A stretch of DNA of 32,000 nt from Candidatus Saccharimonadota bacterium (GTDB lineage: Bacteria; Patescibacteriota; Saccharimonadia; Saccharimonadales; UBA4665): assembly GCA_002952755.1 (NCBI GenBank), contig CP025011.1, positions 1,110,001-1,142,000 of the forward strand, written 5' to 3'. The notes under the pieces are model-generated. The model saw only the letters and a list, made by a program, of their open reading frames with translations. It did no database searches and was not told the DNA's origin. The number at the start of each line of letters is the position of its first letter. The stretch's first letter is position 1. The translations under genes and the position numbers were made by a program. Shown in pieces: positions 1,383 to 31,769 of this stretch.

Positions 1383-2307
1383 ACAATCGTTCGTCGGAAT
1401 CGTAGTACTAGTTTCTGTTTTTGGACTCGCATCCAGCCGGCAAGCAGCAGCTGCCACATCACCCGGCATCACAGTTACGCCTGCCACCTTTAGACTTGAG
1501 CTTAAGCACGGCCAGATTCAAAACCAAACAAGTTTTACGTTGACTAATGGCTATACATCCAGCATTGCGCTCCACTTCTCCTTCAAAACTTCGCCGAACA
1601 ACGTATCGTCAGACAGTAATGCTGACCCTGCAGGCCAGCTGTCCATCGCTACTCCTGATATCACCATCCAACCACACGACTCGATCACCCAAACAGTTAC
1701 CCTCAGCGACAGTCGGCTACTTGCTCCAGGGAGTCAACTAGTGGATTTAGTGGTATCTGAAGTATCGCCAGGTACCAGGGCCATCAGTACGGTCCCGAGT
1801 ATCCGCTTGCCGGTCGTTATCATCAAAGATGACGGTGCTTTTACAAGGCTTACCGCCACAACCTTACCAATTGGCGGTATCCGCACAGGCTTACCGCGCG
1901 CCTTAAGCGTTACCATTCGCAATACGGGCAATGTCGTAACTGCCCCGCACGGCGCTGCGATTATTACCGACGGGGCAGGAAACGAGGTGAGCAAAGGAGT
2001 GCTTAATAGCAACTCGCAGGCGCTCGCCCCAGGCGCAAGTGTAGCCTACACGATTCCGCTCACACAACTTGCACCTTCCAGACTGCTCGGGAAGTACCAG
2101 GTAAGCCTCTCGTATGGACTTGGGGGCGGACTGGGCGTCCAGCTGGTCCGTGCGCATTTCTTTTACATCGGCTGGCAGCACATTACTGGGGCTGTCCTGG
2201 TTTTCATACTTTTATATGCCGGCATACGGACGCTCCTCTACATTCGCTCTCAGCCTAATGCAGCACATCGTGGGAAGAAATCGATATCAGCGGCGAGGGC
2301 ACAATGA
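1369..2307 (+). CDS. Paralogous-architecture secreted surface protein (signal peptide, beta-rich body, C-terminal TM anchor plus basic tail)
   Basis: GTG start at 1369 overlaps the upstream gene by 14 nt. Signal-like IVVLVSVFGLASSRQAAAA. C-terminal TM AVLVFILLYAGIRTLLY followed by HRGKK. Confidence 0.7.
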   Translation: MGINKQSFVGIVVLVSVFGLASSRQAAAATSPGITVTPATFRLELKHGQIQNQTSFTLTNGYTSSIALHFSFKTSPNNVSSDSNADPAGQLSIATPDITIQPHDSITQTVTLSDSRLLAPGSQLVDLVVSEVSPGTRAISTVPSIRLPVVIIKDDGAFTRLTATTLPIGGIRTGLPRALSVTIRNTGNVVTAPHGAAIITDGAGNEVSKGVLNSNSQALAPGASVAYTIPLTQLAPSRLLGKYQVSLSYGLGGGLGVQLVRAHFFYIGWQHITGAVLVFILLYAGIRTLLYIRSQPNAAHRGKKSISAARAQ

Positions 2308-4553
2308 AAAAGGCAAACATAACATTGTTTGTACTGGGTCTGTCACTCATGGGCGGGCTCTTTTCGGTGCATCACGCAGGCGCTGCCATAAATCGGCAGC
2401 TCAGCTTCCAAGGCAAGCTCACCAATAGCGACGGCACTAACGTAACCGACGGCACCTATAGCATCCGTTTTCGGATCTATACCGATCCAACCGCCGACGC
2501 CGGCAACACGTGCAGCGCTAACACCTGCAAATGGGAAGAAACACAGGCTAGTGTGACGGTCAGCGGCGGTCTCTTCCAGGTGAATCTTGGAAGTGTAACG
2601 CCGCTGCCAGGGAGCGTCGACTTTAACAGTGCCGCATTGTATCTAGGGGTGAAGGTGGGGTCGGACAGCGAAATGACGCCGCGCATTCAGCTTACGGCTG
2701 CGCCTTACTCCCTGAACGCCGACATGCTGGATGGACTGGACAGTACAAACTTCGTGCAACTATCGCCAGGTTCGCAACAGACCGGCGCCATTAACATCTC
2801 GGGTGGCATTACCTCTGGAGCTGTGAATGGGCTCACGCTTGCTCAGGCTGCCGACGGCTTTACCCTGGCCGGCGGCACAACCTCGCGCACGTTGACCGTG
2901 CAAGGCGCCAATATCACCATTGGTAGCACTATTCAGCCTACCAACAGCGGCACACTCAGTATCCAGAGCAGCGGAGCAAACGCACTCAATCTCGATACTG
3001 GTGGGGCAGCGGCCATTAATATTGGTGTGAACGGTACGAGTGTCAATACCATCACTATCGGCAATAGCACGAGCAACCCCAACATATCGCTAGCGGGGGG
3101 CGGCACACTTAGCACACCTACGGGTGCAGCCTCAATTAACGGTAATACTACGATTACCGGCACTAAAACGCTTACTGTCGCCGGTGGACTAACGACGCTT
3201 GGGGCCGGTCTTACCTTCAGCGGGACCACCGCCCAAACGATCACGGGGCCGAGTACCGGAGGACTCACGGTGAACGTTGCATCTGGCCCCTTGAGCCTAT
3301 CGACTACGACTGCTGGCGCACTAGCCATTACTTCTGCTGGAGCGCTCTCCCTCACTGGCGCCAGCCCATCCACCTGGGATATCGGCAGCAATCTCTTATC
3401 CTTACAAACCACAGGCAATGGGGGAATTACCACAGGGACCGGCCTCCTGACTCAAGGTGGCAATGTTACATTTTCGGGTACCACAGCACGAACTCTGACC
3501 GGGCCGAGTACTGGAGGACTCACGGTGAACGTTGCAAGCGGACCACTCACACTCTCCACGACAACGTCAGGCACACTAGCAATCAACTCAGCCGGTGCAG
3601 CAAACATCAGCGCTGCAGCTGCCTCCACCTGGGATATCGGCAGCAACACACTTTCTTTGCAAACAACCAATAACGGGGCGGTTACTACTGGGAGTGGACT
3701 CTGGACCGAAGGCGGCAACCTGACGTTTAGCGGTACCGCTGCACGTACTATAACCGGGCCAGGAACGGGGGGACTTACGATCAACGTCACCAGCGGCCCA
3801 TTAACGCTTTCAACGACCACTTCCGGGACATTAACCATCCAGGGGAGTGGCGGGGTGGCGATAACCAGTGGCGGCAATGTCACTATTGGTGCGGTTGACG
3901 GCACCGCTACACTACTTGTGCTCGACACGAAGAATAGTACCGGCGACCCAACCGAAGCAGATGGCGGTATGTACTACAACTCCTCAAACAACCGCTTCCG
4001 TTGCGGCCAAAATGGCACTTGGCTAAACTGCATCGGCGGCACCATGACTTCCAACACTACAGCTTCGTCGGCAGTCAATACCTGCACTACAGCCTGCAGT
4101 GCCTTTACCACCACTTCGGCCTTCCCGGCTAACTTCTGCGTACCCGGCCGCGTCTTTCATATTGTTGCTAACGGCGTATACAGCACGGCAGCAGCAGCAA
4201 CCCTGGCGATGGGCGTCTATGTCGGCACCAACGCCACCACTAAGGCATCTGATACGCTCATCGGTGCAGCATCGGGAGCGCTGAGCTCGGGCGCTCTAGT
4301 TACCAACCAGGGCTGGAGCATCGATTTCTATATATCCTGTTTTACAACTGGTACGAGCGGTACGGTAAATGGTCAGGGCGTTTTTAGCATGGCCACTGCT
4401 GCTACAACGACACTTACCAGTCGTATGTATCTCAGCACCAACACGACCATCAACACGACCACCGCCCAAACGATCTATCTTTTCCCAGCATGGGGCACAT
4501 CTGCCGCAGGCAATACTGCAACTGTGCAGCAATTTATTGTCACAGCGCTTTAG
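2304..4553 (+). CDS. Large secreted repeat protein, tail-fibre-like or beta-helical surface fibre/adhesin candidate
   Basis: The ATG overlaps the upstream stop (ATGA), suggesting translational coupling. It has a signal peptide. N-terminal motifs (QLSFQGKL..., SLNADMLDGLDSTNF, GGMYYNSSNNRFRCGQNGTW) resemble those I recall from tail-fibre-like surface proteins. The centre is Gly/Thr-rich with three ~85-aa repeats. Confidence 0.8.
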   Translation: MKKANITLFVLGLSLMGGLFSVHHAGAAINRQLSFQGKLTNSDGTNVTDGTYSIRFRIYTDPTADAGNTCSANTCKWEETQASVTVSGGLFQVNLGSVTPLPGSVDFNSAALYLGVKVGSDSEMTPRIQLTAAPYSLNADMLDGLDSTNFVQLSPGSQQTGAINISGGITSGAVNGLTLAQAADGFTLAGGTTSRTLTVQGANITIGSTIQPTNSGTLSIQSSGANALNLDTGGAAAINIGVNGTSVNTITIGNSTSNPNISLAGGGTLSTPTGAASINGNTTITGTKTLTVAGGLTTLGAGLTFSGTTAQTITGPSTGGLTVNVASGPLSLSTTTAGALAITSAGALSLTGASPSTWDIGSNLLSLQTTGNGGITTGTGLLTQGGNVTFSGTTARTLTGPSTGGLTVNVASGPLTLSTTTSGTLAINSAGAANISAAAASTWDIGSNTLSLQTTNNGAVTTGSGLWTEGGNLTFSGTAARTITGPGTGGLTINVTSGPLTLSTTTSGTLTIQGSGGVAITSGGNVTIGAVDGTATLLVLDTKNSTGDPTEADGGMYYNSSNNRFRCGQNGTWLNCIGGTMTSNTTASSAVNTCTTACSAFTTTSAFPANFCVPGRVFHIVANGVYSTAAAATLAMGVYVGTNATTKASDTLIGAASGALSSGALVTNQGWSIDFYISCFTTGTSGTVNGQGVFSMATAATTTLTSRMYLSTNTTINTTTAQTIYLFPAWGTSAAGNTATVQQFIVTAL
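3186..3880 (+). repeat. Intragenic tandem repeat, period 255 bp (85 aa), two full units plus a partial third
   Basis: Units begin at aa 295 (GLTTLGAGLTFSGTTAQTITGPSTGGLTVNVASGPLSLSTTT...), aa 380 (GLLTQGGNVTFSGTTARTLTGPSTGGLTVNVASGPLTLSTTT...) and aa 465 (GLWTEGGNLTFSGTAARTITGPGTGGLTINVTSGPLTLSTTT...). Similarity is also visible at the nucleotide level. Confidence 0.85.
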
Positions 4554-4595: not shown

Positions 4596-4703
4596 GAACG
4601 ACCATACCCTCTTCGAAAAATAGAGCGTTACACGCAGGCCGACCTCAGGTCGGTCTGGTTGCACTACGCCTGACTCTATTTTTCGAAGAGGGTATGGTCG
4701 TTC
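4596..4703 (-). repeat. Hairpin element copy 1 (conserved core in reverse orientation, 26-bp copy-specific perfect arms)
   Basis: Left arm gaacgaccataccctcttcgaaaaatagag is the exact reverse complement of the right arm. The core lies at 4622-4677. The copy sits between the convergent 3' ends of 2304..4553 and 4714..5652. Confidence 0.9.
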
Positions 4704-4713
4704 ACACCGCTAC

Positions 4714-5652
4714 TTATTGTTGCGAGACGAAATCGTAGACCTCTTTAGAGACATCAGCGATAAAACTATTCGCTTGGTCTTCCGGTAAGCCGACCATCAC
4801 ACACAACAAGTACGGGCGCTTGGGTATGTACACAATCCCACAATCGCTCTCCGACCACGCAGCATTAAATACACCAATTTTATGCGCAACGGTAAGCTTG
4901 GGCGGCAGATTCTGAGGGATGCGATTTGTTGCTGTCGATTTGGCCAGGTAGCTCAGCAGCTCTTGTGAATCACTTTTCTCCAGATAGGAAGAGAAATAGA
5001 GCCCTTTGAGCACCGAAGCGTACGAGCGGGCGTTGATCACCGCCTGGCCATTCTGCTCATTCTGGTCAATATCCAACCGAGCGAGCGACTGCTCGTCATA
5101 CGTCAACATGTCTTTGGTGTGATCGAATATAACATGCGTAGCAGTGTTATCGGACTGCTCAAGCGCATATTGCGCTGCCTGGCGAAGCGTCAATGTAAAA
5201 CCAGCGCCTTTTTTATAGAGGTCGCCATACGCATCGTCCAGCTCATCGGACGTTACGCTTACCGTTTGATCAAGATGAATCCGGCCCAATTCGGCAGCCT
5301 TATACAGATTCATGACAAGCGGCACCTTTATGAGCGAAGCAGCTACTAGTTCCTGGTCGGCCCCGATACGGATAGACGTACCATCCGGCAGATACTCAAA
5401 ATAAAAACTCTTCTGCACCGTAAGGGCGTCAAATTTGCTTTGGAGCTGTTTACGTAAAGGAACAAAATTGATCAAAATATCATTTTGAGGATCGCCTAAA
5501 ATATTAGCTGCCAGCAAAGGCAAATGCCGCCGGGAGGAGATTTGGGGAGGAGCGGGGCGGTCTTTGATAAACCAGCCAAGATTGCCCAGCAGAAGCAGCA
5601 CGCAAAGAGGTGCCAATATCTGCGCCCCCGTACGCTGTTTGATTTGTTTCAT
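4714..5652 (-). CDS. Class A beta-lactamase-fold serine hydrolase (penicillin-binding-like), membrane-anchored or secreted
   Basis: SxxK (ASLIK), SDN (EQSDNTA) and a KTG-like motif (HKIG). The ORF track starts at TTG 5691. I prefer ATG 5652 (MKQIKQRTG... followed by a hydrophobic anchor). Confidence 0.75.
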   Translation of the reverse strand: MKQIKQRTGAQILAPLCVLLLLGNLGWFIKDRPAPPQISSRRHLPLLAANILGDPQNDILINFVPLRKQLQSKFDALTVQKSFYFEYLPDGTSIRIGADQELVAASLIKVPLVMNLYKAAELGRIHLDQTVSVTSDELDDAYGDLYKKGAGFTLTLRQAAQYALEQSDNTATHVIFDHTKDMLTYDEQSLARLDIDQNEQNGQAVINARSYASVLKGLYFSSYLEKSDSQELLSYLAKSTATNRIPQNLPPKLTVAHKIGVFNAAWSESDCGIVYIPKRPYLLCVMVGLPEDQANSFIADVSKEVYDFVSQQ

Positions 5653-5693
5653 CCTATTGGTAGTGTAGGGGGTGTAGCAGAGTTCTGGCAAGC

Positions 5694-6960: not shown

Positions 6961-7959
6961 ATGAATCGACGCGCAACCGCTGCACACGCCTGGAGAGTTA
7001 TGGACGGGGAGGCTTACTATCAAACATTGATACATGCTATTCCCCTCGCTCAAAAACGCATTACTATTGCTAGTATGCTCTTGCTTGCCGAGAAAAGGGT
7101 GGGTCACATACTAGCCTTGCTAGAACAAGCGATCGAACGCGGCGTATCCGTTACTTTATTATTCGATAATGGCGCTCTTCGGTCGCATTTTATCTACCAA
7201 ATCGATGAAGGCTCAACTCGTAAAACAGTATTGCGTGACACCTTTGCGACACTTGAGACGCTTGCTGCCAAAGGTGCTACAGTTTATCCCTTCAGCAAGT
7301 CACGTCTGCATCCGTACCGCGGCAGATGCCACGTCAAGATAACTATTCTCGACGATACTGTATATTCCTTTGGCGGTATAAATATGATGGATGGCGGCTT
7401 TAGAAGTACGGATTTCATGCTGTCTCAAGTATATCCAGCAGCAGCCAATATACTTACCGACCTGGTCGAACAAATTGGCACCCAGGGCCCGCCCTTACTT
7501 AATCGAGATCCATCGATTGCACAGGGGAGTATTTTGTTTGATGGCGGAGAGCCACATCATTCCATTATCTATGAGCGAGCCTGTGAACTCACCTTGCAGG
7601 CCAAGCACGTCACCTTTGTATCGCAAATGACGCCGAGCGGCAGGTTAGGGCAATTACTCAGCAAAACCGATGCAACGTGCTACTTTAACCGTCCGGAACA
7701 AATGACCGCCCCCCAATCATGGGGTCAGATATTCGACCAGCAACGTTACCGAATTACAAATAGCTATACGCGCGCCGAATACATACACGCCAAATGTATG
7801 CTCTTCGAGTTACCAAGCGGCCAGCACGTCGTGTTAACTGGCTCAAACAATTTCAGTTACCGCGGCGTAGCGTATGGCACACAAGAGATTGCACTCTGCA
7901 GTACCGATCCCCGCTTATACGAGAGCCTCGATGAGTTCATACGGAAAACAATTGGTTAA
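6961..7959 (+). CDS. Phospholipase D superfamily protein with two HKD-type motifs
   Basis: HVKITILD (HxKxxxxD) and HAKCMLFE..GSNN (second HKD-like motif). Confidence 0.8.
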   Translation: MNRRATAAHAWRVMDGEAYYQTLIHAIPLAQKRITIASMLLLAEKRVGHILALLEQAIERGVSVTLLFDNGALRSHFIYQIDEGSTRKTVLRDTFATLETLAAKGATVYPFSKSRLHPYRGRCHVKITILDDTVYSFGGINMMDGGFRSTDFMLSQVYPAAANILTDLVEQIGTQGPPLLNRDPSIAQGSILFDGGEPHHSIIYERACELTLQAKHVTFVSQMTPSGRLGQLLSKTDATCYFNRPEQMTAPQSWGQIFDQQRYRITNSYTRAEYIHAKCMLFELPSGQHVVLTGSNNFSYRGVAYGTQEIALCSTDPRLYESLDEFIRKTIG

Positions 7960-7966
7960 AACCATC

Positions 7967-8317
7967 CTATATGAGGGCGCCGCGGCGCACATACGCCATC
8001 AGGAGCAGATCCCCAGAGAATTGACGCCAACGACCGAGAAGCATGTTTCGTCGCTCGCGGCGCACTTTGGGGTTGCGCTCAAAACGGATCGCTCGGCCAA
8101 TCGCCCATTCGCCCATAGCCAGAGAAGCAAGCAAGCCCGCTCGGCTATGACGAGCCGTCTCCTGGATATCAACTCTTTCCTTACGGCGACGCTTACGAGC
8201 CCGTTCGGCGGCGAGTGCGCGCTCTAAGTTGTATTGTCTCAATGCGAGTTCGTTATACACAGGAGGCTGAGGAAATATGGCCTCTCCCGACGGCGTAACG
8301 ATCGGTTGTCGCTCCAT
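7967..8317 (-). CDS. Hypothetical protein, Arg-rich
   Basis: A strong Shine-Dalgarno sequence (AAAGGAGG) lies 5 nt upstream of the ATG on the minus strand. This ORF is preferred over the overlapping plus-strand ORF 7874..8227. Confidence 0.6.
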   Translation of the reverse strand: MERQPIVTPSGEAIFPQPPVYNELALRQYNLERALAAERARKRRRKERVDIQETARHSRAGLLASLAMGEWAIGRAIRFERNPKVRRERRNMLLGRWRQFSGDLLLMAYVRRGALI

Positions 8318-8336: not shown

Positions 8337-8510
8337 TTATTTTTTAGGTACTTTGCCTCCAGCCTCCCGGGCTTCTGAGAGTCCGATCGCAACAGCCTGC
8401 TTTGGGTTGGTCACCTTCTTACCTGAGCGTCCGCTCTTTAGAGTACCGTGCTTCATCTCGTGCATGGCTTTTTCAACTTTGGCTGATGCTTTTGGTCCGT
8501 ATTGATTCAT
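8337..8510 (-). CDS. Small conserved protein (57 aa), resembles the DUF6496 family of small basic proteins
   Basis: Not in the ORF track because it is under 60 aa. Translation: MNQYGPKASAKVEKAMHEMKHGTLKSGRSGKKVTNPKQAVAIGLSEAREAGGKVPKK*. GGAGG lies 7 nt upstream of the ATG. The family call is from memory of the ...MHE.K.GTLKSG.SGKKV..RKQAIAIGLSEAR... pattern. Confidence 0.7.
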   Translation of the reverse strand: MNQYGPKASAKVEKAMHEMKHGTLKSGRSGKKVTNPKQAVAIGLSEAREAGGKVPKK

Positions 8511-8600: not shown

Positions 8601-8710
8601 TACTAGTCCGTATTCCTATGCCCAAGTAGAGTCAGGCGTAGTGCAACCAGACCAGCGCAAGCTGGTCTGCGTGAGAACGCTCTACTTGGGCATAGGAATA
8701 CGGACTAGTA
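8601..8710 (+). repeat. Hairpin element copy 2 (core forward, 27-bp perfect arms)
   Basis: Arms tactagtccgtattcctatgcccaagtagag / ctctacttgggcataggaatacggactagta. The core lies at 8628-8683. The apical stem CAGACCAGC-GCAA-GCTGGTCTG is perfect. The right arm overlaps the stop codon and last codon of the pilin-like gene. Confidence 0.9.
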
Positions 8711-9169
8711 AGTGCGCGTGATGCTAATCTTCACATGGCCTTCGGCATGCGGGGCTTCGACGGTAACCGTACGGCCAGAAGCCCGCAACCCATACCCAGA
8801 GAGGTACAGCCCTCCACTATCAGCACAGGTAGTAGCACTTAGATCCACGCCACCGACGGGATCTAAGGGCATCTCTTTTAGATAGGTTGGTATTAAGATT
8901 TTACACAAATCAAAATTGGTACTCGTTACCGAGCCGATTACTGCATTGGCCGTCGGCAAGCCAGCCGGCAAACTCCCATTGGCGGCCACGTACCGATTAA
9001 ACGCCTGCGCAATCGCCGCAATGTCAGCCCAGCGATTACCATTATTGCGCTCCACCTGATAGTTCTTAGGATGCAATAAAAATGCGGATAAAAATGCTAA
9101 TCCACAGATAAAAAAACTAACAACGAGTAGCTCCAATAGCGTAAATCCTCGCTGACTATGCCTATACAT
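8705..9169 (-). CDS. Type IV pilin-like (prepilin-type N-terminal cleavage/methylation domain) protein
   Basis: Class III signal: MYRHSQRG|FTLLELLVV plus a hydrophobic helix. The track ORF extends to 9307. The short basic leader argues for ATG 9169. Confidence 0.75.
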   Translation of the reverse strand: MYRHSQRGFTLLELLVVSFFICGLAFLSAFLLHPKNYQVERNNGNRWADIAAIAQAFNRYVAANGSLPAGLPTANAVIGSVTSTNFDLCKILIPTYLKEMPLDPVGGVDLSATTCADSGGLYLSGYGLRASGRTVTVEAPHAEGHVKISITRTY

Positions 9170-9215
9170 AGCTAAAGGGTAGCATATCTGTCGTAAGCCA
9201 GGGTAGAATAGGCTC

Positions 9216-9755
9216 ATGAGCACCCCAAATGCCAGTATCGAATATGAGCTTACTTTTTTAGCCAAACATGTACCAAACGAAATACACAATACGCTCCCTG
9301 AACGCATGGTAGATATCTACCTTCCCGAAAATGTAGAAATTCACCCTGTCCTGCGCCTCCGTAAGCGAGCAGGCAACTACGAAATTACTAAAAAAACAAT
9401 CCTAAACGGCACCGACTCATCCGAAATGCGGGAGCAAACAATCCCGCTGACCCAACTTGAATTTGAAGAGCTCGCCAGCGGGCATCACCGCCTGGTCGAA
9501 AAGGATCGCTATAAAGTAATGCTCGGAGGCCGCCCGGCCGAGGTGGACATTTTTAGCGGTAAGCTGGAAGGATTGGTACTTATCGACTTTGAATTTCTAA
9601 ATAGTGTCGACAAAGCAGCATTCCAGCCGCCGGATTGCTGTCTTGCCGAGGTGACACAAGAAGTTGCGGTAGCCGGCGGTCATTTGGCCGGTAAATCGTA
9701 TGATGATATCGACGAAATACTGCAGCGCTTTCAATATCGGCGCCTGTTCTTATAA
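9216..9755 (+). CDS. CYTH-domain (triphosphate tunnel metalloenzyme) protein
   Basis: An N-terminal IEYELTFL motif (ExExK-like) and the overall CYTH-like pattern. TAGAAT lies 6 nt upstream of the ATG. Confidence 0.65.
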   Translation: MSTPNASIEYELTFLAKHVPNEIHNTLPERMVDIYLPENVEIHPVLRLRKRAGNYEITKKTILNGTDSSEMREQTIPLTQLEFEELASGHHRLVEKDRYKVMLGGRPAEVDIFSGKLEGLVLIDFEFLNSVDKAAFQPPDCCLAEVTQEVAVAGGHLAGKSYDDIDEILQRFQYRRLFL

Positions 9756-10832: not shown

Positions 10833-12341
10833 CTAGAAATATTTATTACCCTCGAGCACCAAGGGCGACAACACGCTACGAACGCTGTTATTAAGTGTCA
10901 CAATCGGACGGCTCGGCCAATCCCAACTGCTATCGCTACGCGTAATAAAACCGATAACACCACCCCCTTGCAGGAAGCATGCTACAGCCAACCCTGCTAT
11001 CACTGGCTTAACGTTGGGCCAGAGACGAAGCGCCAGGTTCAGCCCCCGGCCAGCTACCACACCCAGCGGCAATAGTACCGGTAATAGGTAGCGCCCATTG
11101 ACTGCCACCGGCTGTCCTGTCTCCAGATACTGGGAAAAATTATCGGCCCATACGATGGTAATATACAGCACGCTCATTCCCGTAAGGAAGATCAACAAAG
11201 GGCGCTTGTTGAATACTTTACGGGCATACAACAAAGTAGCTATCAACGCGCACACCCCAAAACAAATGGCTGCGGCACTGGGCAACGGAGAAGGAGGGTA
11301 ATTCAGAAAACCACTAGCCGGGCCGTTGATCATAAAGAAAAGCCGGTAGTGCATACCCTGCAGCCAAAGCCAGCTATAGCTTAACGGATTGGCTGATACG
11401 CTTTCCTTGTTTTGGGTATAGATGTAATTACGGGCCCAGGGCCCATACGACTGACAGTCGCCAGGGGTAAGCACTGTATCACAGGCTGGGACAGGGGTGT
11501 GGTAGGCGGACAAATTCATACCATAGCGTTGCACGAACAGTATGCTGCTCACCAGAAGAAATACTATCAACCCGATTTTCGTAAGCATAGATAATGCACC
11601 ATAACCTTGCCGTAGCCGTGAGCGCAAAAGCCCCTGCCGCCAGAAATTGCGCGCAAAGATAACAACTAGGAAGCATGTGGCCGCTGCCGCCATCGGCAAA
11701 AAGGCATACTTGACGAGACTACCAAGCAGACAGAGGCATACAAAATAAGTAAACGCCTTCAGATCGATCTGTTGTTTTTGAAAACCGTCGTATAACTTAA
11801 AGGTGAGGAGGCAGAGACCGGCGACGACTGGCATAAGTAAATTATCATAGTTGATTTGTCCGGCTAGCAACGGCACAATAGGGATGAGTACAAATAGCGC
11901 CAGTAGGGCGTTCGCAAGGCCTCGCGAAGTGCCCGCCTTGCGCATCACTTTTACAAATAACCACAATCCCAGCGTGAAAAGAACGATATTAATACATCTT
12001 AGGGCGATAATCTGTACCGCCTGCTTGCCGGATAGTATCGAGATTATTCGATAAGGAAAGCTCATCAGCCAGTGATATAGGTACGACGGGTCACGATTAA
12101 GCGCGCCATACTTGCCGTTACCGATGCCGGCATCGGACAAAAAAGGGATCCAATGATGTGCGTATATTTTGATGATACCGAAATGAAAATCCTCATCGAA
12201 TGCCATCGGATACACGGCAGAACAGGCTACCCAGGCAGCCTCAAAAACAAAAAATCCCAATAGTATATGGGTACATCGACGTGATCTGAATACTTGATTT
12301 ATCTTCTCAATAATACGCTGCATGGAATACTTACCGCTCAT
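10833..12341 (-). CDS. Polytopic membrane protein, GT-C fold glycosyltransferase candidate (ArnT/PMT-like)
   Basis: About 12 hydrophobic segments. An acidic DED motif follows TM1 (AFDEDFHF). It is adjacent to the GT2 gene. An alternative start exists at ATG 12323. Confidence 0.7.
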   Translation of the reverse strand: MSGKYSMQRIIEKINQVFRSRRCTHILLGFFVFEAAWVACSAVYPMAFDEDFHFGIIKIYAHHWIPFLSDAGIGNGKYGALNRDPSYLYHWLMSFPYRIISILSGKQAVQIIALRCINIVLFTLGLWLFVKVMRKAGTSRGLANALLALFVLIPIVPLLAGQINYDNLLMPVVAGLCLLTFKLYDGFQKQQIDLKAFTYFVCLCLLGSLVKYAFLPMAAAATCFLVVIFARNFWRQGLLRSRLRQGYGALSMLTKIGLIVFLLVSSILFVQRYGMNLSAYHTPVPACDTVLTPGDCQSYGPWARNYIYTQNKESVSANPLSYSWLWLQGMHYRLFFMINGPASGFLNYPPSPLPSAAAICFGVCALIATLLYARKVFNKRPLLIFLTGMSVLYITIVWADNFSQYLETGQPVAVNGRYLLPVLLPLGVVAGRGLNLALRLWPNVKPVIAGLAVACFLQGGGVIGFITRSDSSWDWPSRPIVTLNNSVRSVLSPLVLEGNKYF

Positions 12342-12389: not shown

Positions 12390-12500
12390 TGCCAGAACAA
12401 ACAGAACTGCTCTCAGTAGAGTCAAGCGTAGTGCAGCCAGACCGACGTAAGTCGGCCTGCGCCTAACGCTCTACTGGGAGCAGTTCTGTTTGTTCTGGCA
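12390..12500 (+). repeat. Hairpin element copy 3 (core forward, 28-bp arms with one T:G position)
   Basis: Arms tgccagaacaaacagaactgctctcagtagag / ctctactgggagcagttctgtttgttctggca. The only non-Watson-Crick position is T12413:G12477. The core lies at 12418-12472. The copy lies between the divergent starts 12341(-) and 12540(+). Confidence 0.9.
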
Positions 12501-12539: not shown

Positions 12540-13436
12540 ATGAAAAAATATCTACGCAGCGTTGCTGCAGCGAGCATTGTTATTTGTACCATCGCAGCAT
12601 TTGTTCGCTACATTTCAGCACATCCTGCTCTCCGCCATCAGTTACAGAGGCTATCCGTAAGTACGCTAGCCCTGTTATTTGGTTTATACTGTCTCGTGTT
12701 CTTGCTACTGTCAGTTGTAAGTCGAGCCAGCTTGGATTTGTATGGAAAACGCATCACCCCTAAGGAAAATATGCTCTTTAATGCCTATTCATCGCTGGTT
12801 AATTTCTTCGGCCCAGGGCAGAGTGGTCCGGTCTTCCGGGGAGCATATCTTAGAAAACGGCACAACCTAGGATTGAAACAGTACGTCTTTGCCACGCTGT
12901 TGTATTACGGCTTTTTCGCAGTCTTCAGTACTTTTCTGATGCTGGCAGGCACTTGTCCCTGGTGGCAGACAGCAGGACTTATGTGTACTACCGGAGTCCT
13001 GAGTGGAGGAGTTATACGCTGGTATAAGCGGCGAGCTGGCCTGCAACAGATACGACCCACTGTCTCAGCCATTGCCTGGATCGGCATGGCTACTGCGTTG
13101 CAAGTTGCCCTTATGGTTGCCATTTACAGCGTCGAGCTACACAGCGTGGCAGTGAAGGCTTCTCTCGGGCAAGTAATGTCCTACACTGGCGTCGCCAATT
13201 TGGCACTTTTTGCAGCCCTAACACCGGGTGCTATCGGTATCCGCGAGGGTTTCTTGCTCTTCAGCCAGCGGCTGCATCATATCACCAGCAGCGCTATCGT
13301 AGCCGCTAACGTTGTCGACCGTGGCGTGTACTTGCTATTTCTCGGATTGCTCTTCATTTTGGTTATCAGTATGCATGCCAAACAGAAACTCCAGGTAACA
13401 CAAACTAACACTGACACACATTTAAAAAAGCCATAA
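12540..13436 (+). CDS. UPF0104 / lysyl-phosphatidylglycerol-synthase-TM-like flippase-type membrane protein
   Basis: Multi-pass membrane protein with GPGQSGPVFRGAYLRK and TPGAIGIREG motifs typical of this family. Confidence 0.7.
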   Translation: MKKYLRSVAAASIVICTIAAFVRYISAHPALRHQLQRLSVSTLALLFGLYCLVFLLLSVVSRASLDLYGKRITPKENMLFNAYSSLVNFFGPGQSGPVFRGAYLRKRHNLGLKQYVFATLLYYGFFAVFSTFLMLAGTCPWWQTAGLMCTTGVLSGGVIRWYKRRAGLQQIRPTVSAIAWIGMATALQVALMVAIYSVELHSVAVKASLGQVMSYTGVANLALFAALTPGAIGIREGFLLFSQRLHHITSSAIVAANVVDRGVYLLFLGLLFILVISMHAKQKLQVTQTNTDTHLKKP

Positions 13437-13447
13437 ATCGCCACACA

Positions 13448-13548
13448 GCACTCTCCCAATGTTCTCCAAAAGAGTCAGGCGTAGTGCAGCCAGACCGACG
13501 TAAGTCGGCCTGCGCGTAACGCTCTTTTGGAGAACATTGGGAGAGTGC
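13448..13548 (+). repeat. Hairpin element copy 4 (core forward, 23-bp perfect arms)
   Basis: Arms gcactctcccaatgttctccaaaagag / ctcttttggagaacattgggagagtgc. The core lies at 13471-13525 and differs from the copy 3 core at 2 positions. Confidence 0.9.
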
Positions 13549-18585: not shown

Positions 18586-18676
<91 letters not shown>

Positions 18677-18731: not shown

Positions 18732-19106
18732 CTATTGCCCGGGTGCACTTGAGGACAGACCCAGGGGACACGATAGGCCGATCCCGCACACAGCACCCGT
18801 GCCGAGCGCACGTATCCCATCTTCCTCTGTCAAGGTTGCGTAACGATACGCACCACAAGATTCCGCCGGGCATTCCTCTTTTACTTCGTTCAAAAGTACT
18901 TTACCCAGCTCGCGGACAGCTTCCTCCTCATCGCCAGACCATTCACTAGATAGGGCGACACGGCCAACCCAGGCGCGCTTGGGTAGCAGAACCACGCCTC
19001 CAATAGCGGTATCTTTATCTAGCTGCTCAGCGAAGCATACATCTACCACACCATGGGCAGTTTCTATAGGCATTTTTGTTCCGGGACGGGTAGAGCGTAG
19101 CGTCAT
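18732..19106 (-). CDS. Hypothetical protein
   Basis: It is the longest ORF in this interval. No motif was recognised and no clear SD was found. Confidence 0.45.
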   Translation of the reverse strand: MTLRSTRPGTKMPIETAHGVVDVCFAEQLDKDTAIGGVVLLPKRAWVGRVALSSEWSGDEEEAVRELGKVLLNEVKEECPAESCGAYRYATLTEEDGIRALGTGAVCGIGLSCPLGLSSSAPGQ

Positions 19107-19215
19107 AAATTGTCATCATAGACCAAATTTTAATTTTTGTATATGAATCACGCGAACAGTATATTTTATGCCGTAGAAGCGGTATTCTATAGGCTGATTA
19201 GTAGAGGAACGCTTT

Positions 19216-24509: not shown

Positions 24510-25451
24510 ATGGGCCATTCCACACCAAGGCCGGCAACTTCTGGGGTGGAATTAGTGTCGACTTATATCGAGTACATTGGAGAAGAAGAGTTAACGAGCC
24601 ATAGAAAACCCGTTAAATATCCGTCCAACACTCCTGAAGGGGCAGCTTATCTAATCGGGCAAGGATGCCTTGAACTCGTAACGGGTAACGATAAATTAGC
24701 CGACAGCGTATTCCGTTATATTCGAAGTACAGTGACAACCGTCATCACAAAACCAGAATGTCGTTGGAACCCAGACGGATCACGACTAGTACACTTGTTT
24801 CATTTAGCCGATATGCTCCTATCGCGTGACCAACCGCATGCAGTAGAGGCGTTTCGTAAGGCAACGTACACTGAATCACTTGTGGATCTCAAAAATACCC
24901 AGACTCAAATCCACACCGAGACTCAGATTCGCCAGACTTCTAGCGGAAGGCACTTGGATCATTTGTTCGGAGCACGAACGGAGCAATGCGCAGAAGGATT
25001 ACTTACACGGCGCGCCACTCCTGGGACTCTTGCGGTTCAAGCCCTTACCCATCACGACCGGAGCAGGGATCCCAAAACCAATTACGATCTTTTGATCGTT
25101 CATAGTAAAACTGAAGAAACACCGCCTTCTATACAAAAGATACAATCAAAACGGTCTTGTTTAGGTTTTTGTAACAACGGAAGGGCAGACCACGGCGACG
25201 AGTTACGATCGAGATACTTGGAAGATATCGCCTTAATATCCGAGCATTGTGATTTAAGAGGAGCGTCAGAAAGCTCTGAGTATGTAAGGCGGTGGCTGGC
25301 TATGGAAGCAAAAACACAAACTTCCGAGTACGTAACGGCCATGCTTGATACGCGAACAGATTACTTGCTCGATATAGTTACCGACCCTCAAGAATGGCGT
25401 ATGGGATTAATTCCAAACGCGGGGCCAACAAATACAGGCCTGGCAGCATAA
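24510..25451 (+). CDS. Hypothetical protein (no recognisable domain)
   Basis: A long ORF with an ATG start. No motif was recognised. Its 3' end faces the tRNA-Leu 3' end. Confidence 0.5.
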   Translation: MGHSTPRPATSGVELVSTYIEYIGEEELTSHRKPVKYPSNTPEGAAYLIGQGCLELVTGNDKLADSVFRYIRSTVTTVITKPECRWNPDGSRLVHLFHLADMLLSRDQPHAVEAFRKATYTESLVDLKNTQTQIHTETQIRQTSSGRHLDHLFGARTEQCAEGLLTRRATPGTLAVQALTHHDRSRDPKTNYDLLIVHSKTEETPPSIQKIQSKRSCLGFCNNGRADHGDELRSRYLEDIALISEHCDLRGASESSEYVRRWLAMEAKTQTSEYVTAMLDTRTDYLLDIVTDPQEWRMGLIPNAGPTNTGLAA

Positions 25452-25519: not shown

Positions 25520-25571
25520 CATCGCCGTCCTATTCGGTCCTGCAGATGCAGGCACGAATACGACGGCGATG
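25520..25571. other. Long imperfect hairpin abutting or overlapping the tRNA-Leu 3' end
   Basis: catcgccgtcctattcg ... cgaatacgacggcgatg forms 17-bp arms with 1 mismatch, around an inner palindrome cctgca-ga-tgcagg. It is unrelated in sequence to the six-copy element. Confidence 0.6.
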
Positions 25572-25656
25572 GTGGGCGAGGAGGGAATCGAACCCTCACG
25601 AACTTGCGTTCACAGGATTTTGAGTCCAGCGCGTCTACCAATTCCGCCACCCGCCC
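25570..25656 (-). tRNA. tRNA-Leu (anticodon CAA), long variable arm, CCA encoded
   Basis: Reverse complement GGGCGGG-TG-GCG-GAATTGGTAGA-CGC-G-CTGGA-CTCAAAA-TCCTG-...-GAGGG-TTCGATT-CCCTC-CTCGCCC-A-CCA. It aligns with the E. coli tRNA-Leu(CAA) layout as I remember it. There is one U:U mismatch in the anticodon stem. Confidence 0.8.
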
Positions 25657-25785: not shown

Positions 25786-27108
25786 ATGAACCCACTGTTC
25801 CCAGACGAACCAGAAAGCGACCAACAAAACCAAAGCTATCTGCTCGCGCGCGGTCAGAATCGGAACATTAAACCGCCAGAGCACCCAGGAGAGGATGCCA
25901 ACCCGGCCGTTGAATTAATTCGACGCAAAATCGAAGCACTCTATGCCGCCGAACCAAACGCACGCTCTGAGCTCAAGGAAGTCGAGACCGTCCCGTCCCG
26001 CTCCAAGCACCAGGAGTTTATGCACCGGCTAAGTACCTCGGGTAAATCACTGGCCGAAATTCAAACCGCCTGGCACAACTACTACATCAGTCTAGATGAT
26101 GACCAAAAGCGCTTGGTATGGCAGGAGTTCTACGCTGCCAACCAAGCCCACCCTTCAGCCTTTACGATAGCGACGCAGCCCCCACAACCAGCCCATCCCC
26201 ACCATCGGGCTCAGACCCTGCCGCCTGCTACAACCCCAGCGCCCCGGACACTACCCGCGCCTTCGTCGCCAATCGTCACTAGTATCCATGAGTCAGACCT
26301 GCCCCGACCGAGCGATCGCCGCTCGGTCGCTACGATCAAACGACAGGTACTTAGCAAAGTACGCGAACGCAACCGGGTACAAATAAAGGCCAAGCAGCAT
26401 CTGCAATCGTTAGTCTTTGGCCTAGGCATGGGTGCGCTAGTGCTGCTCGTTTTTCTCTTTGGATTCTTCAATGAAGTAGTGATCGCGCCCTTCATTCAAC
26501 CAAACAATCACGCCAGCGCCACACCTATTATCTTAAGTCAAGACGGTATAGCACCTACTGCAACGCCTGAAGTGATTATCCCCAAAACCAATGTCGAGCT
26601 CCCGGTCATTTATGGTACCTCGGTGAACGAGAACGACGTCGAAAATTCGTTGGAAGACGGAGTAGTACACTACGCCAGCACATCAGTACCCGGCCAACAG
26701 GGCAATGCCGCTTTCTTTGGTCACTCAAGCAACAATATCTTTAATCCTGGTAAGTATAAGTTTGCCTTTGTGCTGCTGCATGAGTTAGTGCCAGGCGACA
26801 TTTTTTATCTTACATATAATAACCACGTATACACCTATAAAGTCTTCCGCAAGGAGATTGTCCAGCCAACCGACACCTGGGTACTCAACCCTATTGATGG
26901 CAAGGCCGCAACCGCTACCCTTATTACCTGCGACCCACCGGGAACGAGCTTGCATCGCCTCGTTGTCTGGGGCGAACAGATCAGCCCAGACATCAACGGC
27001 AACAGCGGCGCACCAGTCGCAAACACCTCGGCGTCACATTCAACCGACCAGTTAGCCAGCAACGGCCCGACACTCTGGACCAGATTCTGGCGGTGGGTAA
27101 CGCCTTAG
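25786..27108 (+). CDS. Sortase-domain protein with a ~200-aa Pro/basic-rich N-terminal extension and one TM helix
   Basis: Sortase motifs FFGHSS (His), TLITCDP (TLxTC Cys) and a downstream Arg (HRLVV). TM segment LVFGLGMGALVLLVFLFGFF. Confidence 0.85.
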   Translation: MNPLFPDEPESDQQNQSYLLARGQNRNIKPPEHPGEDANPAVELIRRKIEALYAAEPNARSELKEVETVPSRSKHQEFMHRLSTSGKSLAEIQTAWHNYYISLDDDQKRLVWQEFYAANQAHPSAFTIATQPPQPAHPHHRAQTLPPATTPAPRTLPAPSSPIVTSIHESDLPRPSDRRSVATIKRQVLSKVRERNRVQIKAKQHLQSLVFGLGMGALVLLVFLFGFFNEVVIAPFIQPNNHASATPIILSQDGIAPTATPEVIIPKTNVELPVIYGTSVNENDVENSLEDGVVHYASTSVPGQQGNAAFFGHSSNNIFNPGKYKFAFVLLHELVPGDIFYLTYNNHVYTYKVFRKEIVQPTDTWVLNPIDGKAATATLITCDPPGTSLHRLVVWGEQISPDINGNSGAPVANTSASHSTDQLASNGPTLWTRFWRWVTP

Positions 27109-27117
27109 TCAGACACA

Positions 27118-27228
27118 CCAATACCGCCTCCGCCTCTGTTTTAGTAGAGTCAAGCGTAGTGCAGCCAGACCAGCGTAAGCTGGCCTGCGGGAAACGCTCT
27201 ACTAAAACAGAGGCGGAGGCGGTATTGG
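27118..27228 (+). repeat. Hairpin element copy 5 (core forward, 28-bp perfect arms)
   Basis: Arms ccaataccgcctccgcctctgttttagtagag / ctctactaaaacagaggcggaggcggtattgg. The core lies at 27146-27200. The copy starts 9 nt after the sortase stop and ends 2 nt before the PEGA gene stop. Confidence 0.9.
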
Positions 27229-30133: not shown

Positions 30134-31561
30134 ATGAAACCAGCCCGCACCCGATTTGCTCCCAGCCCTACTGGCTACCTCCACGTTGGCGGTGTCCGAA
30201 CGGCTTTATTTGCCTGGCTTTTAGCAAAACAAAGCAAAGGGCAGTTTATCTTACGGCTGGAGGATACTGATAAAGCACGCGAAGTGCAAGGTTCCGAGCG
30301 GCACATTATAGATAGCCTGCATTGGCTCGGCTTGCAGTGGGACGAAGGGGTGGATATTGGTGGTCCCTATGCGCCCTACAAACAAAGTGAACGCTTATCA
30401 ATATACAAGGAGTGGGGTGAAAAATTAGTGGCCAAAGGAAGGGCATATGCCGACCCCTACACTCAAGCAGAAGTCGAAACCTTTAGGCAACAGGCTAAAG
30501 ATAGCAAACAACCGTTCTTGTTCCGCAACCACCGTCCAGAAAACCCACCAATATGGGACGGCACCCAGCCTTTACGCTTCAAGTCCGACCCAAAAGCCTA
30601 TACCTGGCATGACGCCGTCATGGGAGAATTATCTGCAGGAGAAGAGGCGATCGACGATTTTATCCTCATAAAATCAGATGGTTACCCCACTTATAACTTT
30701 TGCCACATTATTGATGATCTACTCATGAACTGCACCCATGTCATTCGTTCGCAGGAGTTCGTATCGAGTATACCGCGTTTTCTTAATCTCTACGAAGCAC
30801 TTGAAATAGAGCGACCCATATTAGCCACTCTGCCTGTAGTACTGGGGCCCGACGGCAAGAAAAAATTATCCAAACGCGACGGAGCTAAAGATATCTTGGA
30901 CTACGCACGTGAAGGCTATCTGCCAGAAGCGATGATGAATTTTATGGCCACTTTGGGCTGGAATGATGGAACTGAGCAAGAAATCTTTAGCGCCCAAGAG
31001 CTGATTGATACATTCCAGCTTGATCGCGTACAGCGGGGCGGTGCTAAGTTTGACGAGCAGCGCCTACTATGGATGAATGGCATGCATATGAGGGCCTTAT
31101 CGATCGATGATGTGGCCACTCGCGCCCAGACCTTTTGGCCACCAGAAGCCGCCAGTTACACCGACGACTACAAAAAACGTATCCTCAGGCTCGTTCAGGA
31201 GCGGCTAAAGTATTTTGCCGAACTACCTGCGCTCACCAGCTTCTTCTTCCAGGATTTACCAATTAATCCGAGTTTATGGACCGAGAACAAACAACTTAAA
31301 AAACTGAACGCCGGTGAATTAAAAAACCTACTTAATCTAGCCCGTAACACGCTTGCCGAATGCGACTTTTCGGTTACTTGTCTCACTAACCACTTGAACG
31401 ATTTATTGGAAAAAACACAGCAAAAGCCAGCGGTTTTGTTCAGCCTCGTCCGTATTGCCACCACCCAGGCGCCAGCTAGCCCAGCGCTAGCGGAAACGCT
31501 TGCCGTTCTTGGCAGAGAAGTTGTCCTGCGTCGTATCGACGCCATGCTACCTACATTGTAG
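30134..31561 (+). CDS. gltX: Glutamyl-tRNA synthetase
   Basis: RFAPSPTGYLHVGGVRTALF (HIGH-type) and KLSKRD (KMSKS-type). The length is typical of bacterial GluRS. Confidence 0.92.
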   Translation: MKPARTRFAPSPTGYLHVGGVRTALFAWLLAKQSKGQFILRLEDTDKAREVQGSERHIIDSLHWLGLQWDEGVDIGGPYAPYKQSERLSIYKEWGEKLVAKGRAYADPYTQAEVETFRQQAKDSKQPFLFRNHRPENPPIWDGTQPLRFKSDPKAYTWHDAVMGELSAGEEAIDDFILIKSDGYPTYNFCHIIDDLLMNCTHVIRSQEFVSSIPRFLNLYEALEIERPILATLPVVLGPDGKKKLSKRDGAKDILDYAREGYLPEAMMNFMATLGWNDGTEQEIFSAQELIDTFQLDRVQRGGAKFDEQRLLWMNGMHMRALSIDDVATRAQTFWPPEAASYTDDYKKRILRLVQERLKYFAELPALTSFFFQDLPINPSLWTENKQLKKLNAGELKNLLNLARNTLAECDFSVTCLTNHLNDLLEKTQQKPAVLFSLVRIATTQAPASPALAETLAVLGREVVLRRIDAMLPTL

Positions 31562-31621
31562 CCAATTGCCTCCTATCTTTCGCCATTGCCGTCATGCTGG
31601 CCCTGCATCCAGAGCTAGTTC

Positions 31622-31730
31622 TATCCTGATGGCAACCCCTCTTCAAGTAGAGCGTTTCGCGCAGGCCAGCTTACGCTGGTCTGGCTGCACTACGCTTGAC
31701 TCTACTTGAAGAGGGGTTGCCATCAGGATA
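31622..31730 (-). repeat. Hairpin element copy 6 (core reverse, 27-bp perfect arms)
   Basis: Arms tatcctgatggcaacccctcttcaagtagag / ctctacttgaagaggggttgccatcaggata. The core lies at 31649-31703 and, reverse-complemented, differs from the copy 5 core at 1 position. Confidence 0.9.
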
Positions 31731-31769
31731 TCAGTGTGTCTGAAAGCATAAGCTGATACAATAAGGCTC

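Follow-up and report, generated by a model that had tools for sequence, protein, structure and literature searches.

Gene content of the window

The window, which is the whole 32-kb stretch of DNA that was analyzed, contains six copies of a hairpin-forming intergenic repeat of approximately 110 bp, found with a repeat finder and a mismatch-tolerant pattern search. The best relatives of the GltX protein of the window (30134-31561) have 73-78% sequence identity to it and are in Saccharimonadales/Patescibacteria; judged by this protein, the host is a Saccharimonadales bacterium. The gene order sortase, PEGA, DUF4367, gltX is common to the window and its relatives. A DUF6496 gene (8337-8510, minus strand; 57 aa, Pfam E-value 1.6e-21), which is missed by lists of open reading frames with a cut-off of 80 aa, sets the context of copy 2 of the repeat. 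The gene at 2304-4553 encodes a 749-aa protein with a signal-peptide-like N-terminus, three '...GPSTGGLTVNVASGPL...' units and no Pfam match, and contains a direct repeat of 216 nt (3369-3584 and 3624-3839, 71% identity); the genes upstream of it (330-1382 and 1369-2307) also have no Pfam match. The two tRNA genes are Ser(GGA) (18586-18675) and Leu(CAA) (25570-25656, minus strand), the latter adjoined by an inverted repeat (25520-25571; 25-nt arms, 88% complementary, 2-nt spacer) that does not contain the core of family A, the window's own family. Two further direct repeats of two copies each, one of 27 nt (19062-19088 and 19185-19211, 70% identity, beginning TTCTATAGGC) and one of 37 nt (25071-25107 and 26581-26617, 73% identity, beginning CCCAAAACCAAT), may be due to chance.

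Six copies of an intergenic hairpin

Copy 2 is the element on which the original prediction was made. The copies are as follows.

Copy 1: 4596..4703, core on the minus strand; arms 4596-4625 and 4674-4703 (30 nt, 100% complementary); apical stem GAC/GTC, loop CTGAG; convergent genes 2304-4553 (plus) and 4714-5691 (minus) on either side
Copy 2: 8601..8710, core on the plus strand (8628-8683); arms 8601-8631 and 8680-8710 (31 nt, 100%); apical stem 8648-8656 and 8661-8669, AGC/GCT, loop GCAA (8657-8660); between two minus-strand genes, pilin-like (8705-9307) and DUF6496 (8337-8510)
Copy 3: 12390..12500, core on the plus strand; arms 12390-12421 and 12469-12500 (32 nt, one T:G at 12413:12477); apical stem GAC/GTC, loop GTAA; between divergent genes 10833-12341 (minus) and 12540-13436 (plus)
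Copy 4: 13448..13548, core on the plus strand; arms 13448-13474 and 13522-13548 (27 nt, 100%); apical stem GAC/GTC, loop GTAA; flanked by two plus-strand genes
Copy 5: 27118..27228, core on the plus strand; arms 27118-27149 and 27197-27228 (32 nt, 100%); apical stem AGC/GCT, loop GTAA; nearly all of the 122-nt spacer between convergent sortase and PEGA genes
Copy 6: 31604..31748, core on the minus strand; perfect arms 31622-31652 and 31700-31730 (31 nt); apical stem AGC/GCT, loop GTAA; 43 nt downstream of gltX

A core of 55 nt is common to all six copies, and each core is nested between copy-specific inverted repeats with arms of 27-32 nt. The 18-mer GCGTAGTGCARCCAGACC occurs six times in the window, compared to 0.02 occurrences expected from shuffled sequences. 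The predicted folding energy of whole elements is -69 to -89 kcal/mol on either strand, with z-scores of approximately -10 to -14, and the folding ensemble is better defined on the reverse strand. In copy 6, weaker pairing continues beyond the perfect arms out to 31604-31748; in copy 2, the right arm runs into the pilin-like gene and takes in its last codon and its stop codon. The cores of copies 5 and 6 differ by one base, and these two copies have a common 10-nt flank (TCAGACACAC) outside the palindrome although the middle parts of their arms differ.

All six elements are intergenic: three are in convergent spacers, two are between co-directional genes (copies 2 and 4) and one is between divergent genes (copy 3), and five of the six abut the 3' end of a gene. 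The core is on the plus strand both in copy 2, which has minus-strand neighbors, and in copy 4, which has plus-strand neighbors, so in read-through transcripts of these two copies the core would be represented by opposite strands. No such hairpin is present in orthologous spacers of relatives.

Short-read contigs from two independent sequencing runs are 100% identical to the window, including the arms, and stop at the conserved core; two Logan contigs of the same organism (L094, L095) terminate precisely where the conserved core of copies 5 and 6 lies. This shows that the elements are genuine and that they are repeated often enough to interrupt assemblies, and the identity of the arms in independent contigs rules out an assembly artifact.

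Structure and variation of the core

The core of copy 2 reads AGAG-TCAGG-CGT-AGTGCAAC-CAGACCAGC-GCAA-GCTGGTCTG-CGTGAGA-ACG-CTCT, in which TCAGG is a bulge and AGTGCAAC is an internal loop. The center of the element consists of a 5' segment that contains GTAG, an apical stem of 9 bp in which an A:C mismatch is conserved, and a short segment on the 3' side; all six cores have GTAG without variation (GCGTAGTGCA), 6 nt away from the stem. The features that had been read from the sequence at the outset are present as described. The apical stem exists in two states, CCAGC/GCTGG in copies 2, 5 and 6 and CCGAC/GTCGG in copies 1, 3 and 4, so that the change from AG to GA on one side is matched by a change from CT to TC on the other; the loop is GCAA in copy 2, GTAA in copies 3 to 6 and CTGAG in copy 1; and the TCARG bulge, the CGT:ACG helix and the internal loop of AGTGCARC versus CG-NNN-A are invariant or nearly so. 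The predicted A:C pair is at 38:54 of the alignment in five of six copies, being replaced by A:T in copy 2 only, and T12413:G12477 is indeed the sole non-Watson-Crick arm pair of the window. The conserved asymmetry of the core argues for constraint beyond that of a plain hairpin, as had been proposed. Cues to the functional strand conflict, the A:C pair favoring the reverse strand while T12413:G12477, the GNRA loops and the CGT:ATG helix of a homolog described below (L172) favor the forward strand, and the earlier statement that no single functional strand is indicated still stands.

Covariation was checked on an alignment of the six copies that included 18 nt of each arm and was scored on the structure of the original prediction. 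Paired cells make up 97% of this alignment, versus 29-44% when the 3' partners are slid by one to three columns. Half of the pairs (15 of 30) are altered on both sides, as are 13 of the 18 inner arm pairs, and covariation is much stronger in the outer arms than in the apical stem, in which pairs 41:51 and 42:50 show a 3:3 split between A-U and G-C with both sides changed. The last base of the 3' internal loop tracks the AG/GA state perfectly among the copies of the window (T with GA, A or G with AG), for which a single switch is the simplest account, and the window therefore provides one event rather than three. The two R positions of the 5' side occur in mixed combinations with the AG/GA state, and the core variants show a four-gamete pattern. 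From this distribution of variants, the AG/GA switch probably happened once and was passed on by descent, accompanied by recombination between copies or by recurrent transitions.

Copy-specific arms

The core, not the arms, was used to find the copies, and 182 of the 183 arm pairs in the window are Watson-Crick pairs, the exception being one G:T; over 18 elements, the proportion is 480 of 491. The arms resemble each other only near the core (consensus ...CCCTCTTCAAGTAGAG): the inner 8-20 nt are common, the outer 10-14 nt are unrelated between copies, and identity fades outwards from cores that are nearly identical. In the orientation of the core, the left arms of all six copies are rich in C (53 C versus 18 G), which argues for inheritance of the arms together with the core or for some strand-specific constraint.

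Arm sequences are matched nowhere else in the window and nowhere in approximately 1 Mb of relatives, and three 20-mers from the arms have no exact match in viral contigs; with matches missing from the window, the relatives and (for three arms) the viral contigs, the idea that the arms serve as guides or consist of captured foreign DNA is rejected. Insertion into pre-existing long palindromes is also rejected, such 'empty' palindromes being essentially absent from the window and the relatives. Inspection of the flanks of all six copies reveals no direct repeat indicative of a target-site duplication; a possible flanking repeat, TTTCG, is present only at one element of a relative (L151-C2). The possibilities for the origin of the outer arms are drift and conversion in old loci combined with gene conversion of the core, creation at insertion, and stepwise outward extension.

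A homolog and further hairpin families in other Saccharimonadales

The set of relatives comprises 80 metagenome loci around gltX and three loci from exact-protein look-ups, approximately 0.97 Mb in all, which were scanned for near-perfect inverted repeats around spacers of 20-130 nt with arms of at least 18 nt (strict) or at least 14 nt (loose). The strict scan found 11 such hairpins in approximately 0.97 Mb, versus six in the 32-kb window; one of the 11 (L098) is a duplicate of the L097 locus and another (L140) is probably derived from a tRNA. The loose scan together with a covariance model added a few (L151 9843-9963, L099, L109 and L172). The covariance model, made from the six-copy alignment, identifies one convincing homolog in approximately 1 Mb of relatives, at 15962-16047 of L172 (56 bits, E-value approximately 4e-11), a locus of which the GltX protein is 66% identical to that of the window. 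The apical stem of this homolog is CGGACGCGA/TCGCGCCCG and its loop is TTGTGTT, which is not of the GNRA type; GTAG is replaced by GTAA, and the CGT helix is CGT:ATG. The element is antisense to its co-directional neighbor genes. When L172 is included, both sides are altered in five of the nine apical pairs, and the A:C mismatch is at the same position, kept in six of seven sequences, so the apical helix and the A:C mismatch are conserved and the GNRA loop is not.

Other elements of the relatives are as follows.

L097: 1143-1274 and 11501-11627, family B
L110: 1637-1756, family B
L151: 1277-1423 and 9843-9963, family C
L169: 306-426, family C
L116: 1129-1259 and 5950-6078, family D
L109: 182-290, family D
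L108: 11439-11576
L103: 8371-8460
L099: 8372-8491

On comparison of their sequences, these elements appear to have the same architecture as those of the window, with unique near-perfect arms and a conserved asymmetric core, and to have different cores, making up at least four families in Saccharimonadales genomes. Several of them are immediately upstream or downstream of gltX. Divergent spacers hold L151-C1, L116-D2 and L103. One JGI contig of a relative (L152) begins, at position 1, inside its own family C element.

Family B has CGCGCGGCGCG...CTTCCGGCTT in common around a variable apical hairpin, and its three copies all point the same way with respect to co-directional genes. In the two L097 copies the arms are homologous, being identical at 18 of 27 positions, and each difference is matched in the partner arm according to a reading by eye. 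Their apical loops, AGATG (1205-1215) and CATCT (11562-11572), are exact reverse complements on identical stems, which suggests, from the sequences of this one pair, inversion by exchange between the arms of the hairpin. In family D, the L116 pair is identical in the core and in the 13 arm nucleotides next to it, except for a 2-nt indel; further out are approximately 9 nt that are partly similar and then unrelated sequences, and both copies are still perfect palindromes. In family C, core identity is approximately 80%, with compensatory changes, and the arms show no relationship. Families C and D have GTAG or GTAA a few bases 5' of the apical stem; family B does not.

In L151 and L169, a family C element, oppositely oriented in the two, is located just upstream of gltX; it is absent from L165, which is a closer relative of L151 than L169 is (89% versus 86% GltX identity). 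Neither arm sequence of L151 or L169 is present at this site in L165, the only empty site available. The sequence TGnTATAAT is present approximately 10 nt before the gltX start codon in L165 (9950-10000), L151 (9965-10000) and L169 (430-465); from its sequence and position it may be an extended -10 box, in which case the gltX mRNA would be nearly leaderless. L151-C1 has TGnTAWAAT boxes on both sides that use the TG of the arm ends.

Searches for known families and for a mobilizing gene

At gathering thresholds, Rfam models match only the two tRNAs in the window; down to an E-value of 10, the element is matched only by generic long-hairpin miRNA models below their gathering thresholds, and nothing is matched at the elements of the relatives. 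A known RNA family is therefore rejected as an identification, at gathering thresholds and at E-values up to 10. A pattern of the core with 17 specified bases matches 91 stretches in a scan of genome contigs, approximately the estimated chance number, and the two Enterobacterales matches that were inspected are chance matches inside G+C-rich sequence. A pattern with 21 specified bases has no matches in metagenomes; a viral scan gave two matches, both rejected by the covariance model, and a phage collection gave none. These pattern scans of genome, metagenome and viral collections thus added no members to the family. A terminator scan does not call the elements, its calls being at background numbers only, and no T/U tract follows the hairpin on either strand; with no U-tract and with copy 3 between divergent genes, a canonical Rho-independent terminator is ruled out.

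Pfam scans of the proteins of the window found no RAYT, integrase, credible transposase or other candidate mobilizing gene. A phmmer search for Y1/RAYT proteins among six-frame open reading frames of approximately 1 Mb of relatives, with an IS200 TnpA query of low sensitivity, found none. The open reading frame at 7874-8227 (plus strand) matches Transposase_20 at 22.4 bits versus a cut-off of 21.3 bits and has no homolog among 5.8 billion proteins, so the Pfam match is probably spurious and a link to IS110 is rejected. The segment 7960-8336 is otherwise without an assigned gene.

A DNA-level interpretation of the repeats

Compensatory double substitutions in the apical stem had been taken to indicate selection on structure. 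The part of this claim that concerns pairing holds, the apical pairing being conserved while five of nine pairs change on both sides once L172 is considered, but the step from there to a selected RNA structure is not justified. The AG/GA switch is most simply one event by descent; the element is a DNA palindrome, in which template switching yields 'compensatory' pairs in one step; RNA-level compensatory evolution usually leaves more wobble intermediates, and wobble pairs in the arms are far fewer than this; the orientation of the core is independent of the direction of transcription; and the GNRA loop is absent from L172. The claim is thus partly supported: pairing and asymmetry are under constraint, and compensatory change here is not evidence for a functional RNA, as a DNA palindrome of the REP/MITE type accounts for it no less well than a selected RNA structure does.

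The interpretation favored here, with a probability of about 0.5, is that the six elements are a lineage-specific family of non-coding, non-autonomous intergenic palindromic repeats, functionally of the REP/MITE kind, that act at the level of DNA. The asymmetric center would be the selected part, a recognition module for a putative trans-acting protein, for which the candidates are a transposase or a nuclease that recognizes one DNA strand in its folded form, in the manner of RAYT and IS200/IS605 enzymes. The features left unpaired in every copy (the TCARG bulge and the AGTGCARC/CG-NNN-A loop), together with the A:C mismatch, may form the recognition surface; under a homogenizing pressure on the palindrome, features that stay unpaired need selection to persist. 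The arms would drift freely, with perfect complementarity restored by intrastrand template switching (quasipalindrome correction) or arm-to-arm conversion, and the same processes could yield the AG/GA-CT/TC change and the 'repair' of the A:C mismatch in copy 2. Arm-to-arm exchange could also invert the center, and copies within a genome may exchange core sequence by recombination or conversion to give mosaic variants. In the Ripley model and in E. coli studies by the Lovett laboratory, template switching reportedly copies a change between the arms of a quasipalindrome in one step; its operation in these elements is proposed by analogy with those other bacteria.

A repeat of this kind accounts for the free orientation of the elements, their presence in divergent spacers, the missing U-tract, the scarcity of wobble pairs in the arms, the filled and empty sites, and the inverted loop, as seen in six copies and one homolog. 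Counting against it are that no mobilizing gene was found in the sequences searched, that no target-site duplication is evident in the flanks, that the outer copy-specific arms are left unexplained, and that neither arm is at the one available empty site. Further points against it are the 10-nt flank common to copies 5 and 6, which is not predicted by a simple gradient model; the C-rich left arms, a strand asymmetry tied to the core that an RNA function could also explain; and the GNRA loops of five of six copies on the forward strand.

The same observations bear on two explanations that act through transcripts. Cis-acting structured RNAs in untranslated regions, with the long stem as a 3'-end stabilizer or RNase III site, the apical domain binding a protein or making a tertiary contact, and the compensatory changes reflecting selection on RNA pairing, would account for the very stable folds on both strands (z-scores of approximately -10 to -14), strong covariation in all helices, GNRA loops in five of six copies, an A:C that becomes G:U on the reverse strand and is kept in L172, the better-defined ensemble of that strand, the proximity of five of six copies to a gene 3' end, C-rich 5' arms tied to the orientation of the core, and the uniform orientation of the three family B copies relative to co-directional genes. 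An asymmetric RNA motif cannot work both ways, however, and copy 2 and L172 are antisense while copy 4 is sense; copy 3 and several elements of relatives are in divergent promoter spacers; G:U is nearly absent from the arms (one in 183); the GNRA loop is lost in L172; strand cues conflict; and there is no Rfam match, which together leave this explanation rather unlikely. Bidirectional terminators or insulators, in which a symmetric long hairpin works either way and the conserved center is incidental, avoid the problem of orientation, since the hairpin is very stable and the same on both strands, and they suit the three convergent and two co-directional spacers, above all that of copy 5, which takes up almost the whole of a convergent spacer. 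They are very unlikely given that no T/U tract is on either strand and the terminator scan does not call the elements, that copy 3, L151-C1, L116-D2 and L103 are between divergent genes, that orthologous spacers of relatives have no such hairpin, and that the conserved asymmetric core is left unexplained.

Within a DNA-level account, the outer arms might not be maintained at all, having been made at each insertion, perfect and unique, as a small mobile core inserted by a replication-based template switch or a hairpin intermediate. The L116 pair, with near-identical cores and inner arms but unrelated perfect outer arms, has this appearance, as do the family C copies with unrelated arms in one genome; no target-site duplication was seen, long 'empty' palindromes that could be targets are essentially absent, and the arm ends of copy 2 and of L110 include the stop codon of a neighboring gene. 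Against this, the only available empty site has neither arm of L151 or L169, the similarity of arms fades gradually with no fixed boundary, the C-rich left arms of all six copies point to inheritance with the core, and the arms have no match in the window, in relatives or, for the three tested, in viral contigs; creation at insertion is accordingly quite improbable as a general explanation. An extension of the favored interpretation, palindromic repeats acting as DNA with a selected center and re-perfected arms, is offered as a speculation that is itself improbable: Saccharimonadales may harbor an as yet undescribed class of 'inside-out' palindromic elements, in which a small asymmetric core spreads or is homogenized between loci and the long locus-specific arms are re-perfected, and sometimes flipped, by hairpin-templated DNA synthesis; a DNA hairpin would thus persist and spread in a very small genome by a largely transposase-independent, replication-driven process.

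The genomes of Saccharibacteria are small and streamlined, and searches of the literature found interspersed repeats described neither for Saccharibacteria in general nor for the present family. A dense family (six copies in 32 kb) with sparser analogs across the order would be a new repeat population of the Candidate Phyla Radiation, and would be a practical cause of assembly breaks in metagenome-assembled genomes of Saccharibacteria. They also provide a natural test case for distinguishing selection on RNA pairing from templated mutation in DNA palindromes as the source of 'compensatory' change, and whenever a structured RNA is called from covariation in palindromic repeats, the same caveat holds.

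Comparison with known systems

Bacterial MITEs such as Correia, ERIC and RPE have terminal inverted repeats that are conserved between copies, and target-site duplications. The present elements are like them in being approximately 100-150 bp long, non-coding, intergenic, multi-copy, capable of forming long hairpins, and abundant in particular lineages, and unlike them in that only the inner 8-20 nt of the arms are common between copies and no duplication was seen. Integron attC sites, which are recombination sites recognized as folded single strands, have conserved outer R''/R' sequences and a variable center; structure and specific unpaired or mismatched bases likewise outweigh sequence in both, and stems covary, whereas the outer ends are unique and the center is conserved here, with no integrase among the proteins of the window and no cassette context. 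Quasipalindrome correction, by which imperfect inverted repeats are perfected in one step, is the proposed source of the compensatory changes and near-perfect arms of these elements, but it is a mutational process shown in E. coli and not an element family, and it is extended to them by analogy. Hairpin-forming repeats of organelle genomes, such as those of sponge mitochondria (PMC2800124), are unrelated in sequence and host, and resemble the present families in that they reportedly invade the intergenic DNA of compact genomes as hairpins without a transposase.

From sequence features, the closest match found appears to be the GTAG-tagged REPs, which are imperfect palindromes of 20-40 bp with a stem of 6-13 bp, a short loop, and many intergenic copies (Di Nocera et al. 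2013, PMC3733652). GTAG-tagged REPs and REPINs are mobilized by RAYT tyrosine transposases (PMC3733652; Bertels & Rainey 2011, PMC3116915), but no RAYT was found among the proteins of the window or, with a low-sensitivity query, in approximately 1 Mb of relatives. A REPIN consists of two conserved, inverted REPs around a variable spacer, whereas the present elements have a single central conserved module and copy-specific arms with no stem-loops of their own. They differ from GTAG-tagged REPs also in that GTAG is 6 nt from the stem and is replaced by GTAA in L172, that divergent spacers are not avoided, and that Patescibacteria are not among the host phyla reported (PMC3733652). The likeness extends, all the same, to palindromes with a 9-bp stem and a 4-nt loop in six intergenic copies within 32 kb, a G+C-rich composition, conserved mismatches in the stem, the possibility of long hairpins, and families that differ between species, and it may include the GTAG 5' of the stem that is invariant in the six cores. 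REP families are described as having alternative complementary residues in their stems (PMC3733652), and the present copies likewise form sub-families by complementary residues, AG:CT versus GA:TC, at a ratio of 3:3.
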